From positions 2,522 to 66,521 of the forward strand of contig CAYVXE010000003.1 in NCBI GenBank assembly GCA_964455375.1: 64,000 nt of DNA, given 5' to 3'. The position numbers and the translations under genes are program-made. Position 1 is the first letter of the stretch, and each line of letters opens with the position of its first letter. The DNA comes from an uncultured Calditrichaceae bacterium. GTDB taxonomy: Bacteria; Zhuqueibacterota; Zhuqueibacteria; Oceanimicrobiales; Oceanimicrobiaceae. The notes below the pieces were generated by a model. That model was not told the origin of the DNA. It searched no databases and worked only from the letters and a program-made list of their open reading frames with translations. Below, one piece after another: positions 36,985 through 63,231 of this stretch.

Positions 36985-37323
36985 TTATTTCTCTAATCTG
37001 ATTAATAAGTCTCCATACTCGACTTTTAATCTTTCAAAGGTAACTTGATTAAAACCCTTCCTGGCCATAAGAAGAATCATTTTATTTTCAGGCAGACGAT
37101 TGTTATCTCTTCTGAATAACTCCCGAAGTCTCCTTTTTGCTCTGTTTCGCTTAACTGCACCAGATATTTTTTTTGAAACGGCAAATCCAACCTTTTTTTC
37201 TTCAGCATCTAATGCAATTAATAAAATATGGTTTGAATGGTATCGTTTTCCGTGAGTAAACATCTTGCTAAAGAGTAACGGACTTTTAATGATCAGCCGC
37301 TTTGATAAACGGTGTTTTTTCAC
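36985..37323 (-). CDS. rnpA: Ribonuclease P protein component
   Basis: 112 aa basic protein lying between rpmH and yidD. RnpA-like KR-rich motif. Confidence 0.8.
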   Translation of the reverse strand: MKKHRLSKRLIIKSPLLFSKMFTHGKRYHSNHILLIALDAEEKKVGFAVSKKISGAVKRNRAKRRLRELFRRDNNRLPENKMILLMARKGFNQVTFERLKVEYGDLLIRLEK

Positions 37324-37340
37324 AAAATTGCTTTGGTGGG

Positions 37341-37484
37341 TTACCTGTCACTTACTGTTAAACTTTTTCTTCCTTTAGCCCTCCGGGAACTCAAAACAGC
37401 ACGTCCGGACTTAGTTTTCATTCTTGCCCTGAAACCGTGTTTGTTCACTTTCTTTCTATTGCTTGGCTGAAATGTTCTTTTCAT
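37341..37484 (-). CDS. rpmH: 50S ribosomal protein L34 (not in ORF track because it is under 60 aa)
   Basis: Manual translation of the minus strand gives [47 protein letters not shown] (47 aa). This is the canonical L34 MKRTFQPS...HGFR.RM.T..GR.VL..RR.KGR motif, placed directly upstream of rnpA. Confidence 0.85.
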
Positions 37485-37499
37485 GGCATGCCTTTTAAT

Positions 37500-37940
37500 T
37501 TATATATCCTAAATTCACTTATATTCAAAAAAAACTGTAAAACATATTAATTATCCTGGTAAAAGTCAAGTTATTTCTCAATACCATATTCATCATTTAT
37601 TCAAAATATTTTACCTTGACATTAAACGTGTTATTCTTAAATTTCCAACATCCCCCCTAACCGAAATCTGTATTTAAAAAATGTGGATAATGTATTAATT
37701 TTTACTTTTAAAATAGAAATAACCTGTGTATAAAATAAGTCTTTTACATTCATTATCGTTCAATAGGCATACAAATAGCTTGTATCTTTTCTGTTTTTAT
37801 TTATTTTACTCTTTGCTTTTGTTTTGTGGATAACTTGTGAGTAAGTTTCGTATGTTTGTCAATTTTTTAAAAAAATGGGTTTTTTCTGTTAATACTTTAT
37901 TTTCAGTTAAACTTTTAACATAAATATAGGTTTTTAAATT
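37500..37940. promoter_or_regulatory. AT-rich rpmH/dnaA divergent intergenic region with DnaA boxes (origin-proximal box cluster / dnaA promoter)
   Basis: Perfect TGTGGATAA boxes at 37682-37690 and 37825-37833, plus degenerate boxes (for example TTATCCTGG near 37553). Over 70% AT. The minus-to-plus strand switch occurs here. Confidence 0.7.
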
Positions 37941-39290
37941 ATGTCTGATCCGTGTGTTTCAACTTGGAATGACTGTTTATCTATTATTAAGGACAGTATT
38001 AATCCACAGAGTTACACAACTTGGTTTAAACCGATAACACCGCTAAATCTAAGAGACGAAAAATTGACCGTCGAAGTTCCAAGTCAGTTCTTTTATGAAT
38101 GGCTGGAAGGTCATTATAGTAATTTAATTAACAAGGCATTGCTTCAGGTTCTTGGTGATAGTGCAGAACTCACGTATTCCATCTCTGAAAAAAATAATGG
38201 TGCTTTTTACGATGTCCCATCAATTGATAGAAAAAAAACCAACAATAAATATCAAATTAACAGCAATTTAATGGACCGGTATATTTTTGATACATTTGTT
38301 GAGGGTTCAAATAATCAGTTTGCACGTGCAGCGGCCATGGCGGTTGCTGAATCACCCGGGAAAACAACCTTCAATCCATTGGTTCTATACGGTGGCGTTG
38401 GTCTCGGAAAAACACATCTTATTCATGCAATTGGTCATTATGCCCTTTCCAATAAGACCGCCAGTAATGTTTTATATGTGGACAGTGAAAAATTTACCAT
38501 TGAATTTATTAATTCCATTCAGAATAATAAGACCACCCAATTCAGTTCCATTTACAGAAATGTGGATTTGCTCTTAGTAGATGACATCCAATTCTTCAAT
38601 AATAAAGAAAGAACACAAGAAGAATTTTTTCATACATTTAATGCTCTATACAATGCCGGTAAACAAATTGTTCTATCCTCAGACCGTCCACCAAAAGAGT
38701 TAGATGGCGTGGAAGATAGGTTAATTTCACGATTTCAGTGGGGACTCGTTGCGGATATTCAACCCCCTGATTTTGAAACTCGAATCGCTATTCTTCAGCA
38801 AAAAGCAGATCAGACAGGTGTGGATATGCCTGGTGAAATAATTGAATTCATCGCAGCAAATGTGACATCTAACATTCGGGAGATGGAAGGGGCTCTTATT
38901 CGCTTGCTGGCATTTTCCTCCTTAAATGGAAAGGACTGTACGCTTTCAGACGCAAAAGATGTGCTTAAAAACCTGAGTTTGCGTAAAAAGAAAAAAATAC
39001 TCATTGAGGAAATACAAAGAACAATCTCTGATCACTTTGATATCGAAGATGATCTTCTTAGAGCAAAAACCAGAAAAAAAGAAATTGTCTACATTAGGCA
39101 AGTTGCCATGTATCTCTGTAAAATTCTAACCAAACATTCTCTAAAAACCATCGGGTTGCATTTTGGAGGTCGGGATCATAGCACGGTTATTCATGCAATA
39201 CAAATTATCGAAAAACTAGTCAAAAACGATGAGAAAACCAACGATGAAATAAGTGAGTTAAGAAAGAAAATTGAACTGGCATGTATGTAA
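37941..39290 (+). CDS. dnaA: Chromosomal replication initiator DnaA
   Basis: 449 aa. AAA+ Walker A GGVGLGKTHL, sensor motifs, and C-terminal DnaA-box-binding HTH (YLCKILTKHSLKTIGLHFGGRDHSTVIHA). Confidence 0.95.
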   Translation: MSDPCVSTWNDCLSIIKDSINPQSYTTWFKPITPLNLRDEKLTVEVPSQFFYEWLEGHYSNLINKALLQVLGDSAELTYSISEKNNGAFYDVPSIDRKKTNNKYQINSNLMDRYIFDTFVEGSNNQFARAAAMAVAESPGKTTFNPLVLYGGVGLGKTHLIHAIGHYALSNKTASNVLYVDSEKFTIEFINSIQNNKTTQFSSIYRNVDLLLVDDIQFFNNKERTQEEFFHTFNALYNAGKQIVLSSDRPPKELDGVEDRLISRFQWGLVADIQPPDFETRIAILQQKADQTGVDMPGEIIEFIAANVTSNIREMEGALIRLLAFSSLNGKDCTLSDAKDVLKNLSLRKKKKILIEEIQRTISDHFDIEDDLLRAKTRKKEIVYIRQVAMYLCKILTKHSLKTIGLHFGGRDHSTVIHAIQIIEKLVKNDEKTNDEISELRKKIELACM

Positions 39291-39592
39291 TCCAGTTATT
39301 CACATTCCGCTGTGGATAACATGTTATTTTAACTTTATAATTTGTGGATAATAAAAGAAGGATTAAGTACCCACTACTTTATACACAACAAAGGATATAT
39401 AATTAACAGTTCATCAACATAATTAAAAATGACTTTTCTAAAAATGAACGCCAAAAAATCAATTAGATGCGATACTTATTACGAAAGTTATCCACTTATC
39501 CACAGTCTCTACTACTACTAGTATTTAAAATTATTCTTGAATAATAGCTATTTATTTTATATCTTTTTAAATTATAAAAATTCGAGGTTTTT
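39291..39592. promoter_or_regulatory. dnaA-dnaN intergenic DnaA-box cluster with AT-rich unwinding-element-like tract (probable oriC core)
   Basis: Perfect boxes at 39311-39319, 39343-39351 and 39496-39504, plus an overlapping one-mismatch box at 39488-39496. A highly AT-rich tract lies at 39520-39590, next to dnaN. Confidence 0.7.
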
Positions 39593-56103: not shown

Positions 56104-56997
56104 TTAGAAATATATCACGCCCTGATTGTCGGCTGTGAAAATTCGACATACCGCTGGAATATTCAAGGCGCGTGCTTTTTGCTGCCAGGCGTCCTGCAAA
56201 GATGTTCCGTCATCTGCGGTAAAGGCCAGGATCGTTGATCCAGACCCGCTGACACAGACTCCGAGTGCTTTCGATTCGACGGCGACCCCTGCAAATGCGT
56301 CGTAGCCGGGGATGAGTTGTTTGCGATACGGTTGGTGTATTTTATCCTGCATGGCGATGGATAACGCTTCGTAATTTTTACTCATGAACGCATGTGTGAG
56401 AAGAGCGCTGCGTTGAATGTTGAAAACCGCGTCTTTGTGGCTCACCGAACCGGGTAAAATCTGCCGTGCCGCTTTGGTGGAAATGGTCACGTCGGGAATT
56501 AACGCGACCATCGTGAGACTGGGTTCTACGGGAAACGCTTTTGTCACCGGACGGCCTTTCTCAAGGCAATTTATCGTGAAGCCGCCAAACAGTGACGCCG
56601 CGGCATTTTCCGGATGGCCTTCAAGTTCGTTTGCCAGGGAAAGCAGGTACTCTTTTTTTGTGTTTAGGCCGGTGAGTTTTGCGGCACAAGCCAATCCTGC
56701 AATCGTTGCTGCGCCACTGCTTCCAAGACCACGGGACAAAGGAATCTCATTTTTGACTGTGATGTTCAAGGCAGGCAGCATTTGGTTGACATGAAGGAAA
56801 AACTTTTTTACTGCCAGATAAACAAGATTTGTTTCGTCGCGGGGAATTTCATCGGCGCCTTCACCGGAAACCTCGATGTGCAGGTCTGTGGGGCTGACGT
56901 CCATTTTTACGGTCAGGTACATCTGTAGCGCCAGACCGAAGGTGTCGAATCCAGAACCGAGATTCGATGTGGATGCGGGAACCCGGACGTTAACCAT
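56104..56997 (-). CDS. thrB: Homoserine kinase
   Basis: The track ORF (420 aa) has a 123-aa N-terminal extension overlapping pyrE. Homology starts at MVNVRVPASTSNLGSGFDTFGLAL (GHMP kinase motif PxxxNLGxGFD) with ATG at 56997, and contains PLSRGLGSSGA. Confidence 0.8.
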   Translation of the reverse strand: MVNVRVPASTSNLGSGFDTFGLALQMYLTVKMDVSPTDLHIEVSGEGADEIPRDETNLVYLAVKKFFLHVNQMLPALNITVKNEIPLSRGLGSSGAATIAGLACAAKLTGLNTKKEYLLSLANELEGHPENAAASLFGGFTINCLEKGRPVTKAFPVEPSLTMVALIPDVTISTKAARQILPGSVSHKDAVFNIQRSALLTHAFMSKNYEALSIAMQDKIHQPYRKQLIPGYDAFAGVAVESKALGVCVSGSGSTILAFTADDGTSLQDAWQQKARALNIPAVCRIFTADNQGVIYF

Positions 56998-60846: not shown

Positions 60847-60899
60847 ATCCTGTATCTGTTAAAATGTTTTAATAAGTAAAAATACACTTGTTTTTTGTG

Positions 60900-61260
60900 A
60901 TTTTTGCTCACTAAGAAGAAAACAGGTAGTGTGAATAAAGTGTGGATAACTTTTAAGAGATGGCTATATTTTCTTTATATCTTAAAATAACGCAAAATTC
61001 TCAAGAAACTGCGAATTTGGGCGAATAATACGGATTTTTTGGCGACAGATAAAACTTCAGCCGTTTTATGGTTGTCATAAGCTTTAAATAATTAATGGTT
61101 TACGTAGATTTATTTGTTGGGATTCAGGTGAGGTGTTCCGGCTAGAACCTTTTATTGCTTTAAGTATTAATAATTGACAACAGATATTGACTTGCATGTC
61201 TCTTAGGCCACAGTGGAATGTTATCCACAAAAAAATGTGGATAACTTGTTGAGGCTAAGG
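60900..61260. promoter_or_regulatory. Distal cluster of DnaA boxes in an AT-rich intergenic region (about 21 kb from dnaA)
   Basis: Perfect TGTGGATAA at 60941-60949, one-mismatch TGTGAATAA at 60930-60938, and an inverted perfect pair TTATCCACA(61221-61229)-aaaaaa-TGTGGATAA(61236-61244). Confidence 0.65.
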
Positions 61261-61370
61261 AAAAGTGATAGTGAGTTTAGATGCTTGTTTTACAACGCAA
61301 TTAGCCGGAAAGATGATGGAGATTGTGTATAAAATATGATTTGAAGGCTTTGGTAAGTGGCAAATAATCG

Positions 61371-61399
61371 TTGACTTTATGTGAAAAGATTCTTAAATA
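61371..61399 (+). promoter_or_regulatory. Sigma70-like promoter upstream of DUF92 gene
   Basis: TTGACT(61371-61376), 17-nt spacer, TAAATA(61394-61399). The predicted TSS lies about 8 nt before the ATG at 61415. Confidence 0.4.
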
Positions 61400-61414
61400 T
61401 CAGCATTATTTTTC

Positions 61415-62236
61415 ATGGAATCAAATGTGGTTTATCTGGGTGGTTTTATTCTTGCCACAACGGCTGCTGTGGTGTCTTATCGATTAAAACTGTTGACCAG
61501 AGGGGGGGCGTTCGTTGCTTTTCTGATGGGGTGGATCGTTTTCAGCCTGGGTCAACTTCCATTTAGTGCGCCGATATTATTCTTTTTTGTCTCGTCTAAC
61601 CTGTTGTCAAAAACTAATCACACGCAAAAGTCAAGGTTATATATTTTTGCTAATGATATGGATCGAAGAAATTGGTTTCAAGTCTTCGCGAATGGATTTG
61701 TACCAACCATTCTGGTCATTGCCTGGAGTTTTAAGCATGACATGCGGGTTGTGTTTCTTTTTCTCATCGCTCTGGCATCGGCAACATCGGACACATGGGC
61801 CAGTGAAATCGGAATTCTGTCACAGAAAAAACCACGTTCCATTATTTCATTTAAGCCGGCAGACGCAGGCAGCTCTGGCGGAGTCACGTTGCTTGGTTTC
61901 TGGGGAGCTGCTATCGGATCTTTTTCCCTTGCAATAACGGGGGGATGGATTTTTTATCGTTTGGCCCACATAAATTTTACCTGGTATCATATCTTTTCGA
62001 TTTTCGCGATCGGAGTGTTTTCACAGACCGTCGATAGTATTTTAGGTGCCAGTTTACAAGCAAAGTATCTTTGTCCGGTTTGCCAAAAAACAATTGAAAA
62101 ACCAACACACCTGGAACACGGTCCGGCCCGCTGTGTTGCCGGGTTTTCCTGGGTGGACAATAGCGTAGTTAACTTATTCTCCATTATCATCGGCACGCTG
62201 GTCGGATGGTTGAGTTTAGGGACAATGCAACAGTAA
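61415..62236 (+). CDS. DUF92/TMEM19-like integral membrane protein with C-terminal Cys cluster
   Basis: 273 aa, multi-TM. C-terminal YLCPVCQKTIEKPTHLEHGPARCVAG carries a CxxC...C motif. Confidence 0.55.
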   Translation: MESNVVYLGGFILATTAAVVSYRLKLLTRGGAFVAFLMGWIVFSLGQLPFSAPILFFFVSSNLLSKTNHTQKSRLYIFANDMDRRNWFQVFANGFVPTILVIAWSFKHDMRVVFLFLIALASATSDTWASEIGILSQKKPRSIISFKPADAGSSGGVTLLGFWGAAIGSFSLAITGGWIFYRLAHINFTWYHIFSIFAIGVFSQTVDSILGASLQAKYLCPVCQKTIEKPTHLEHGPARCVAGFSWVDNSVVNLFSIIIGTLVGWLSLGTMQQ

Positions 62237-62248
62237 AGGAATGAAAAT

Positions 62249-62545
62249 ATGGCACTGAAAAAAAAATGGAAAATCGGTCTGTTCATCACAAGTATTTTTG
62301 TGTTGATTATTTATTTGTTTTTTGCGGGTGACTACAATTTATATCATTTATGGAAATTGAAGCAGAAGAGGAAAGCGTTGATTTCTGAGATTGCAAATCA
62401 GAAGAAAAAAAACTTGGACCTCCAGACAGAAATTCAAAAATTAAAAGCAGATTCCACACATATAGAGAAGATTGCCCGTGAAAAATATACCATGGGCAAA
62501 AAAGGCGAAACGATTTATAAATTCAATCAGAAGGCACAGAAGTGA
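62249..62545 (+). CDS. ftsB: Septum formation initiator (FtsB/DivIC-like)
   Basis: 98 aa. Single N-terminal TM followed by a coiled coil (LKQKRKALISEIANQKKKNLDLQTEIQKLKAD), which is the FtsB/FtsL architecture. Confidence 0.6.
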   Translation: MALKKKWKIGLFITSIFVLIIYLFFAGDYNLYHLWKLKQKRKALISEIANQKKKNLDLQTEIQKLKADSTHIEKIAREKYTMGKKGETIYKFNQKAQK

Positions 62546-63231
62546 GCGATTCAAAACCCTTGGTGCCAAAAGGAGGCATCGGTAAAAAATTCAGAGCTTA
62601 TTTTTTAACCGGATTGCTGGTATTGGTTCCTTTAGCTGTAACGTATTTTATCATCAAACTTTTATTTCTTTCAATCGATGATATCTTAAACGATTTTGTA
62701 TCCAGGCTTCTATACAGATTCGGTCTTGAAATTGGTGGAAGAAGAATTCCAGGCATTGGTTTTATCACGTTAATCTTAATCATTACCTTTACCGGGTTGT
62801 TTACACGAAATTATTTCGGTAAAAAGCTGGTGGATTTGGGCGATCGATTGATGCAGAGAATTCCTTTGATTAATCGTGTTTATGGCGCTACAAAACAAAT
62901 CAGTCAGGCTTTTTTTTCGGCAAAGCGAGAGGTTTTTAAAAAGGCCGTTTTGTTTGAATATCCCAGGAAAGGAATTTATTCCATCGGGTTTTATACGCAG
63001 GATACCAGGGGGTCTGTTCAGGACGCGCTGGAAGACGACGTCGTGAGTGTTTTTTTGCCAACGACCCCAAATCCGACGTCTGGCTTTTTGCTGTTTGTGA
63101 AAAAGGCGGAAATGGTTGAATTAGATCTCACCATTGAAGAAGCGTTGAAGCTGGTTATTTCCGGCGGAGCTATCGTACCTGATGCTAATAAGAATCCAAC
63201 AAGAATTCAAAACCCGAAAAACAAGGGTTAA
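62542..63231 (+). CDS. DUF502 family membrane protein
   Basis: 229 aa. Two N-terminal TMs and a conserved IPLINRVYGATKQ motif. Confidence 0.6.
   Translation: MSDSKPLVPKGGIGKKFRAYFLTGLLVLVPLAVTYFIIKLLFLSIDDILNDFVSRLLYRFGLEIGGRRIPGIGFITLILIITFTGLFTRNYFGKKLVDLGDRLMQRIPLINRVYGATKQISQAFFSAKREVFKKAVLFEYPRKGIYSIGFYTQDTRGSVQDALEDDVVSVFLPTTPNPTSGFLLFVKKAEMVELDLTIEEALKLVISGGAIVPDANKNPTRIQNPKNKG

Follow-up and report, generated by a model that had tools for sequence, protein, structure and literature searches.

Why a second cluster of perfect DnaA boxes should lie about 21 kb from dnaA, in front of an operon that includes a cell division gene, is the question raised by a 64,000-nucleotide stretch of contig CAYVXE010000003.1 (assembly GCA_964455375.1) from an uncultured Calditrichaceae bacterium, referred to below as the window. 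Judged by the names attached to its closest DUF92, DnaA and AI-2E homologues, the organism is KSB1/Calditrichota-like and belongs to the FCB group. To our knowledge, ectopic DnaA-binding control loci have been worked out in few model bacteria, mainly Escherichia coli, Bacillus subtilis and Caulobacter. Ectopic regulatory loci built from DnaA boxes are known as such; the element described here appears to be a variant of them. Our preferred answer, to which we assign a probability of about 0.5, is that the cluster forms part of a conserved DnaA-dependent upstream control module of the DUF92-ftsB(divIC)-DUF502 operon, which would also sequester some DnaA.

A pair of DnaA boxes conserved upstream of the operon

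The sites and genes concerned are the following, in window coordinates.

60930–60938, minus strand: box A', weak, with one mismatch, reading TTATTCACA on the minus strand and TGTGAATAA on the plus strand; 11 bp start-to-start before box A
60941–60949, minus strand: box A, perfect TTATCCACA, extended form TGTGGATAACTT; the distal anchor
60950–61220, no strand: AT-rich spacer; box A to box B is 295 bp start-to-start
61009–61015, plus strand: internal motif CTGCGAA, family consensus AAnTTGCGAA; +69 from the start of box A
61221–61229, plus strand: box B', perfect, inverted relative to box B, with AAAAAA between B' and B
61236–61244, minus strand: box B, perfect (aTGTGGATAACTT); the proximal anchor
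61324–61332, minus strand: box C, one mismatch (TTATACACA); starts 47 bp before the start of the −35 hexamer
61371–61399, plus strand: sigma-70-type operon promoter, TTGACT, 16–17 bp spacer, TTAAAT/TAAATA
61415–62236, plus strand: DUF92 membrane protein gene, first of the operon (Pfam PF01940, E = 2.4e-61)
62249–62545, plus strand: DivIC/FtsB-like septum-formation initiator gene (Pfam PF04977, E = 1e-19)
62542–63231, plus strand: DUF502 membrane protein gene (Pfam PF04367, E = 1.9e-36)

The five ectopic boxes, three perfect and two with one mismatch, span 403 bp (60930–61332), and the three perfect ones span 304 bp. Boxes B' and B form the inverted pair GTTATCCACA-AAAAAA-TGTGGATAAC. The cluster is set in a 568-bp gene-free gap (60847–61414), with an SDF symporter gene on one side and the DUF92-DivIC/FtsB-DUF502 operon on the other; no plausible open reading frame (ORF) was found within this gap, and no intrinsic terminator was found after the SDF gene in the window. 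The initial annotation of this DNA had placed three perfect boxes in AT-rich intergenic DNA, two of them as a head-to-head pair with an A6 gap at 61221–61244, and both readings hold (60941 minus, 61221 plus, 61236 minus). It had counted one single-mismatch box within 320 bp, whereas there are two (60930 and 61324), and all five boxes take up the longer distance given above. The three genes it had recognized downstream are confirmed by their Pfam domains, and its distance of about 21 kb was computed as 21.65 kb, measured from the end of dnaA to the start of the cluster on the right replichore.

Altogether the window contains eight perfect boxes against 0.56 expected, and none of 100 shuffled sequences reached eight. 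The remaining five flank dnaA (37682, 37825, 39311, 39343 and 39496), in agreement with the earlier count for the origin region. A chance rate of one perfect box per 130 kb per orientation had been assumed; the boxes are indeed rare, but the rate itself is about two-fold too high for the base composition, so the enrichment had if anything been understated. The clustering of boxes is real and far beyond chance. The window also has about three times as many one-mismatch boxes as expected (45 versus 15.7). Roughly 20 of these fall at oriC or in the element; the other 25 or so are scattered, still above expectation.

The arrangement is shared by a close relative, L001 (ENA contig k141_725235; related loci are designated here by L and a number), whose DUF92 protein is 83% identical and which is syntenic over more than 10 kb. 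All five boxes are kept in place and orientation. The intergenic gaps of the two sequences are 76% identical overall and 74% identical outside the boxes, against 45 of 45 identical box positions (permutation P = 0.0003); the conservation in a syntenic relative on which the initial annotation had made its reading depend was thus found. The longest perfect runs measure 38, 28 and 24 nt and contain the inverted pair, box C and the A'-A pair, respectively; the −35 region (18 nt) and a run containing TGCGAA (17 nt) come next. The two gaps differ by a 10-bp indel.

Further related loci were fetched by protein only, through DUF92 or DUF502, and hence without bias toward boxes. One set consisted of 80 species genomes obtained via DUF92 alignment and the other of 80 metagenome contigs obtained via DUF502 alignment; a first genome scan using the DUF92 protein alone gave no match, and neither the DUF92 product of the window nor the protein P0001 had an exact record. 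The element that emerges is a pair of perfect boxes, exactly two in many loci, that share one orientation (TGTGGATAA on the operon strand) and are 263–312 bp apart. It recurs in 14 lineages besides the window, and its orientation is always the same. It was found in L005, L014, L018, L032, L086, L089, L092, L099, L100, L105, L133, L140 and L147, and also in near-duplicates, L001 and the window. The spacing from A to B has a mean of 289.5 bp and a standard deviation of 14 bp (13 dereplicated loci; L105 and the window are two more). Of the perfect boxes in 519 kb of related loci, 28 belong to elements and 2 do not. The pair occurs in many loci of the subset with the gene order DUF92-divIC-DUF502-(about 625 aa)-HATPase. 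Among loci for which 2.3 kb or more of upstream sequence was available, 39 lack the pair; this figure overstates absence, as in some of them the operon starts beyond the fetched DNA. L137 and L138 contain one-mismatch boxes that look paired at a distance of about 264 bp, and L159 has a comparable site; all lie in conserved sequence of protein-coding appearance and were not accepted as elements.

Site A has the family consensus yTGTGAAyAArnTGTGGATAACTT, that is, a weak box, 2 bp and a perfect box. Box A is invariant across 15 sequences, and the weak TGTGAAyAA at −11 is kept in most element-bearing lineages. A further weak box often starts 11–13 bp later, giving a head-to-tail array of 2–3 boxes on one helix face. 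Site B, a(a/g)TGTGGATAACTT, is invariant across the family, and its surroundings are variable. An inverted partner with a 6-bp gap is present in only 3 of the 15 sequences, namely the window, L001 (9 of 9 positions of B' kept) and L018 (8 of 9). L092 and L095 have a weaker inverted partner with an 11-bp gap, and in L005, L133 and L140 a weak tandem box precedes B in place of the inverted partner. Box C is lineage-specific; it is confined to the window and L001, and a near-promoter equivalent is absent from the other lineages.

The element always precedes the operon promoter on the 5' side, site B being the nearer and site A the farther of the two, so conserved boxes stand upstream of one transcription unit in the 14 lineages and the window, as expected of a DnaA regulon member. 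A TTGACTTT...TTAAAT promoter lies downstream of site B in all element-bearing loci but L014, in which none was identified, and the TTGACTTT...TTAAAT(A) promoter precedes the first operon gene in almost all related loci, the box-less L006, L009 and L022 included. Between box B and the −35 hexamer there are 61, 78, 110, 113, 118, 135 (window), 137, 140, 150, 253, 270, 274, 275 or 345 bp. From −60 to +45 around the −35 hexamer no boxes with up to 2 mismatches were found except box C in the window and L001, and a promoter-proximal box was discarded as a general feature.

The gene upstream of the element encodes an SDF protein in the window, L001, L032, L086, L099 and L100, a peptidase M28 in L005 and a DUF3078 protein in L014. 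It is co-directional with the operon in most element-bearing loci and divergent in L005 and L014, and probably in L018. DUF92 is missing from L086, L099 and L100, where the element precedes divIC-DUF502. L170 has kept the origin-proximal block (dnaA ... AI-2E, pyrE, pyrF, SDF), but an MFS gene comes after SDF and the element is absent. From the varied neighbours, the DUF92-less loci that keep the element and L170 that has none, it follows that the element goes with the operon and is tied neither to the SDF gene nor to a map position. L170 is one of three contigs (L168–L170) fetched via AI-2E transporter homologues, in which synteny is lost and neither operon nor element was found.

A location near oriC, which is a property of datA in E. 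coli, is seen in the window and in the KSB1 genome GCA_029262055.1. In contig JAJDAD010000024.1 of the latter, dnaA occupies 37,056–38,420 and the element (L032) lies at 56,626, 18.2 kb downstream, with the gene order of the window (dnaA-dnaN-recF-dciA-gyrB-gyrA ... AI-2E ... pyrE-pyrF-SDF-element). At least two diverged genomes (DnaA 71% identical) have thus preserved an origin-proximal element, at 21.65 and 18.2 kb from dnaA.

The spacer and the replication origin

The spacer measures 254–303 bp across the family; its length is conserved and its sequence is poorly alignable. Its GC content is 0.33 in the window, compared to 0.43 for the window as a whole, and across the family it is 4–17 points below the locus average. 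Inside the spacer a single feature is conserved, AAnTTGCGA(A/T), which keeps a position of +67 to +69 relative to the box A start. Exact TTGCGA within +50 to +100 of box A occurs in 6 of 13 dereplicated lineages, compared to 0.12 expected from shuffles, and one-base variants are found at +69 in the window (CTGCGAA) and L133 (TTGCGT). The motif stands at the equivalent place in L032, L005, L089, L092, L099 and L133, the spacers of which are otherwise unalignable. In 4 of the 13 lineages it is preceded, at +60 to +61, by CAAnnnnTTG, a core resembling the binding site of integration host factor (IHF), and the L089 sequence, AATCAAGATATTG, agrees fully with a published IHF consensus, WATCAAnnnnTTR (PMC10380432). 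IHF is said to be limited to a few phyla (PMC10380432). The TTGCGA motif may be a site for a second DNA-binding factor, at which the match in L089 can only hint.

The spacer was also searched for other functional content. Weak boxes with up to 2 mismatches are not enriched (22 in 15 spacers against 15.3 expected), and most of the excess lies beside the anchors. A small-protein gene was rejected, as no ORF is shared in position or strand among the related loci and the 10-bp indel separates the window from L001. So was a known RNA family or a structured RNA gene: fold z-scores are centred on zero, averaging −0.1 and −0.26 on the two strands (15 loci), and Rfam gave nothing at the gathering score for the window and 14 related loci, with matches of E = 0.45 or higher, far below gathering, at a lax threshold. 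A good terminator hairpin was found only in L032; with no consistent pattern across loci, a terminator or transcription unit inside the spacer was discarded. Initiation from the TTGCGA hexamer as a promoter was discarded as well, as there is no conserved −10 element at 16–18 bp.

The initial annotation had also considered that the cluster might be the second half of a split origin. High-affinity boxes in AT-rich intergenic DNA, with a tandem pair at the 11-bp spacing usual for origin boxes, would suit a second replication origin or part of a split oriC, but the location of the origin makes this reading hardly credible. Over the first 37 kb or so GC skew is negative; from about 39 kb onwards it is positive up to the end of the window (64 kb), including 61 kb and even the minus-strand genes at 54–59 kb. 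Within the window, the skew analysis recommended earlier thus places the origin at dnaA (sign change at 37–39 kb). The dnaA gene occupies 37941–39290, and the spacer that follows it holds a standard unwinding module.

39488–39560, plus strand: origin unwinding module in the dnaA-dnaN spacer, with tandem boxes TTATCCACT and TTATCCACA overlapping by one base

This spacer reads GTTATCCACTTATCCACA-GTCTC-TACTACTACTAGTAT-TTAAAATTATT, corresponding to boxes, a short GC-containing element, trios and an AT-rich tract; the five DnaA-trios (TACTACTACTAGTAT) are at 39509–39523, directly before the AT-rich tract. Because of this module and the two perfect boxes upstream of dnaA (37682 and 37825), oriC is, by its sequence features, bipartite around dnaA. 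Site A of the element resembles the module in being a head-to-tail box pair with about 11-bp periodicity. It differs in that neither a GC cluster nor an AT-rich unwinding tract was found 3' of the ectopic boxes, that DnaA-trios are absent there in the window and its relatives, and that the skew places the origin 21 kb away. Moreover, the spacer does not contain an array of weak boxes, and both anchors point in the same direction, unlike the R1 and R4 boxes of E. coli oriC, which converge.

A proposed DnaA-dependent control module and its alternatives

The boxes, their conservation and fixed geometry, and their linkage and orientation to the operon are established, and features of a gene, an RNA structure or an origin are absent. 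We infer that DnaA binds at A and B, that bridging takes place between the two sites, and that the promoter is modulated, with some sequestration of DnaA as a by-product. In such a mechanism, DnaA would be present on both anchors during most of the cell cycle, and DnaA-bound A and B would interact via known DnaA-DnaA contacts to form a loop or a higher-order complex upstream of the promoter, perhaps with the help of a DNA-bending protein at the TTGCGA motif. The state of the complex would track the level of active DnaA and tune transcription of the envelope and division operon, most likely in the form of upstream activation as at sda of B. subtilis. In this way the cell would couple production of FtsB and its membrane partners to the initiation of replication. 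Being located near oriC in this genome, the module would be duplicated early and soak up a few DnaA molecules, as the box clusters of B. subtilis do.

In B. subtilis, DnaA stably binds intergenic box clusters, activates sda from upstream boxes and represses ywlC and yydA (PMC2533591); repression of the division operon yllB-ftsL by DnaA is cited in the same study (PMC2533591). The likeness to the present element is that of consensus boxes in intergenic DNA away from the unwinding site, several of them near oriC, and of stably bound DnaA that in B. subtilis regulates adjacent genes, a division operon among them. The element differs in having two anchors about 290 bp apart and a second conserved motif, it shows no sequence homology to these clusters, and its target operon is DUF92-ftsB-DUF502. 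Its box density is also much lower. Stable B. subtilis clusters have an affinity-weighted density A above 0.3 over four successive boxes (Ishikawa 2007, PMC2533591), whereas the window cluster, with the weights of that study, gives A = (1+4+4+4)/102 = 0.13 and (4+4+4+2)/127.7 = 0.11.

A DnaA-regulated promoter of the ftsB-like gene had been one of the options named initially, and it is the best supported, the module being linked to operon and promoter in 14 lineages, but the boxes are located 61–345 bp upstream of the −35 hexamer. This wide variation in distance, and the fact that outside the window lineage no box touches the core promoter, argue against simple contact activation or occlusion. 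Close relatives (L006, L085, L009 and L022) have the promoter and the operon without the module, which therefore is dispensable. In addition, the conserved spacing and the fixed TTGCGA make up a self-contained architecture whose purpose could be to act on DnaA itself, as datA or DARS does, and not on the promoter, and part of the constant linkage and orientation could be due to common descent instead of selection. All of these points weigh against a control module, and the variable promoter distance together with dispensability in relatives is the main weakness of the model.

A datA/DARS-type locus controlling DnaA activity, also envisaged in the initial annotation, is a possibility that we hold with low confidence. 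On this reading, the two box sites and a bending-protein site would assemble a DnaA complex which would either promote hydrolysis of DnaA-ATP after initiation, like datA, or release ADP via the inverted pair and so regenerate active DnaA, like DARS; timing would be set by gene dosage near oriC, and adjacency to the operon would be incidental. This would account for the self-contained architecture with its A-to-B spacing of 289.5 ± 14 bp, the fixed position of the internal motif with the IHF consensus match in L089, the origin-proximal position in two genomes and the variable distance to the promoter, but it is difficult to reconcile with an element that follows the operon rather than an origin-proximal position, that many close relatives do not have, and whose box density is below that of the stable B. 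subtilis clusters. In E. coli, datA is likewise a non-coding locus close to oriC, with same-orientation high-affinity boxes, AT-rich DNA and an IHF site between them, a spacing that matters and an accessory inverted box as in the window. Its boxes are 162 bp apart as opposed to about 290 bp, the IHF-type site is only loosely matched by the element (the core being at its fixed place in 4 of 13 lineages only), and datA is not tied to a downstream operon. As an architectural parallel, datA is a loose one. The resemblance to DARS concerns site B of the window, where the inverted pair TTATCCACA-N6-TGTGGATAA has the polarity of boxes I-II in E. coli DARS1 (TTATCCACt-N5-TGTGGATAA-N3-TGTGTATTA when read directly), with a gap of 6 instead of 5 bp, and where the flanks GTTATCCAC...TGTGGATAAC are common to site B and the DARS1/DARS2 core. 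In DARS1, however, box II is followed after 3 bp by box III (TGTGTATTA). The corresponding 9 positions of the window read GTTGAGGCT, of which 2 agree, and the next box in the same orientation is reached only 88 bp from box B. The inverted partner is lineage-specific and missing from most members of the family, and the element adds a distal box array and a long spacer.

Another explanation, which appears improbable, is a passive high-affinity sink for DnaA or a transcriptional insulator against upstream read-through, without a graded regulatory role. The boxes are of the strongest type (TGTGGATAAC), but 3–5 of them provide only a small titration capacity, and the Ishikawa density score of 0.11–0.13 is below the 0.3 of stable clusters. 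Insulation would make sense of an SDF gene without an intrinsic terminator in the window and of the co-directional upstream gene in most element-bearing loci. In L005, L014 and probably L018 there would be no read-through to block, since the upstream gene is divergent, and neither function explains the conserved spacing of about 290 bp or the TTGCGA motif.

The element is a sharply defined and conserved example of an ectopic DnaA-box locus, with a geometry of its own, found in an uncultivated FCB-group lineage in front of the gene for a core divisome protein. Its exact boxes, spacing and second motif open the much-debated connection of replication with division to experiment in bacteria other than the usual models. 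A more ambitious version, which we consider doubtful, is a self-contained DnaA device with anchors about 290 bp apart around a second-factor site, in which a DnaA-bridged loop would control the promoter of the ftsB operon and at the same time tune the amount of active DnaA. Such a device may be one not previously described, a functional datA/DARS analogue in an uncultivated phylum, and it would couple replication initiation physically and directly to cell division.

DUF92 in other lineages and the genes of the operon

Boxes upstream of DUF92 are not restricted to the KSB1-like bacteria. Five Anaerolineae/Chloroflexota loci in the DUF92-based sample have one to three perfect TTATCCACA boxes and near-perfect ones before DUF92 (L042 3946–3976, L049 1158–1208, L062 3833–3884, L069 3945–3974 and L064 887–916). 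These boxes are 21–22 bp apart, all in the same orientation, and differently built from the element of the window. They fill the short gap between a gene with a bPH_5 domain (confirmed by Pfam in 4 of the 5 loci) and DUF92, and end between a few bases and about 35 bp before the DUF92 start codon. No such boxes precede DUF92 in ten other Chloroflexota loci, and dnaA was not found within 4 kb of the loci that have them. This independent association in a second phylum modestly backs the regulatory reading. DUF92 membrane proteins may be recurrent members of the DnaA regulon in unrelated phyla (KSB1-like bacteria and Anaerolineae), in which case initiation would be tied to a membrane process that has so far had no known connection to the cell cycle. 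The tandem boxes of Anaerolineae suggest a function for this widespread, so far uncharacterized family. No relevant publication was found in a literature search combining DnaA and DUF92.

A promoter-like site upstream of dnaA in the window (37616–37645, TTGACATTAAACGTGTTATTCTTAAAT) closely resembles the operon promoter at 61371. Boxes at 37682, 37725 and 37825 are downstream of it, in the classic layout of autoregulation. Because this very similar promoter precedes dnaA, the operon promoter is probably of the housekeeping type.

The first gene of the operon varies among the related loci. L014 (3281–4792), L018 (3287–4798), L105 (1044–2540) and L147 (831–2324) encode proteins of about 500 aa in which DUF92 makes up the C-terminal half; for the one protein tested, that of L014, the N-terminal 240 aa or so had no Pfam match at E <= 0.001. 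Loci without DUF92 have 400–530 bp without a convincing ORF between the promoter and divIC (L100 3764–4171; L099 3250–3780), a stretch that could be a decayed DUF92 gene or a long leader.

Downstream of the operon, thiamine pyrophosphate (TPP) riboswitches are present in L032 (8200–8299) and L099 (7173–7270). L001 has a ThiC gene (PF01964) at the place corresponding to these riboswitches, which in the window lies beyond the end. In many lineages of the clade, DUF502 is followed by the gene for a conserved protein of about 625 aa without a Pfam domain (L001 11845–13716), whose homologue in the window runs off the 3' end, and then by a small HATPase_c_2 gene resembling those of anti-sigma kinases.

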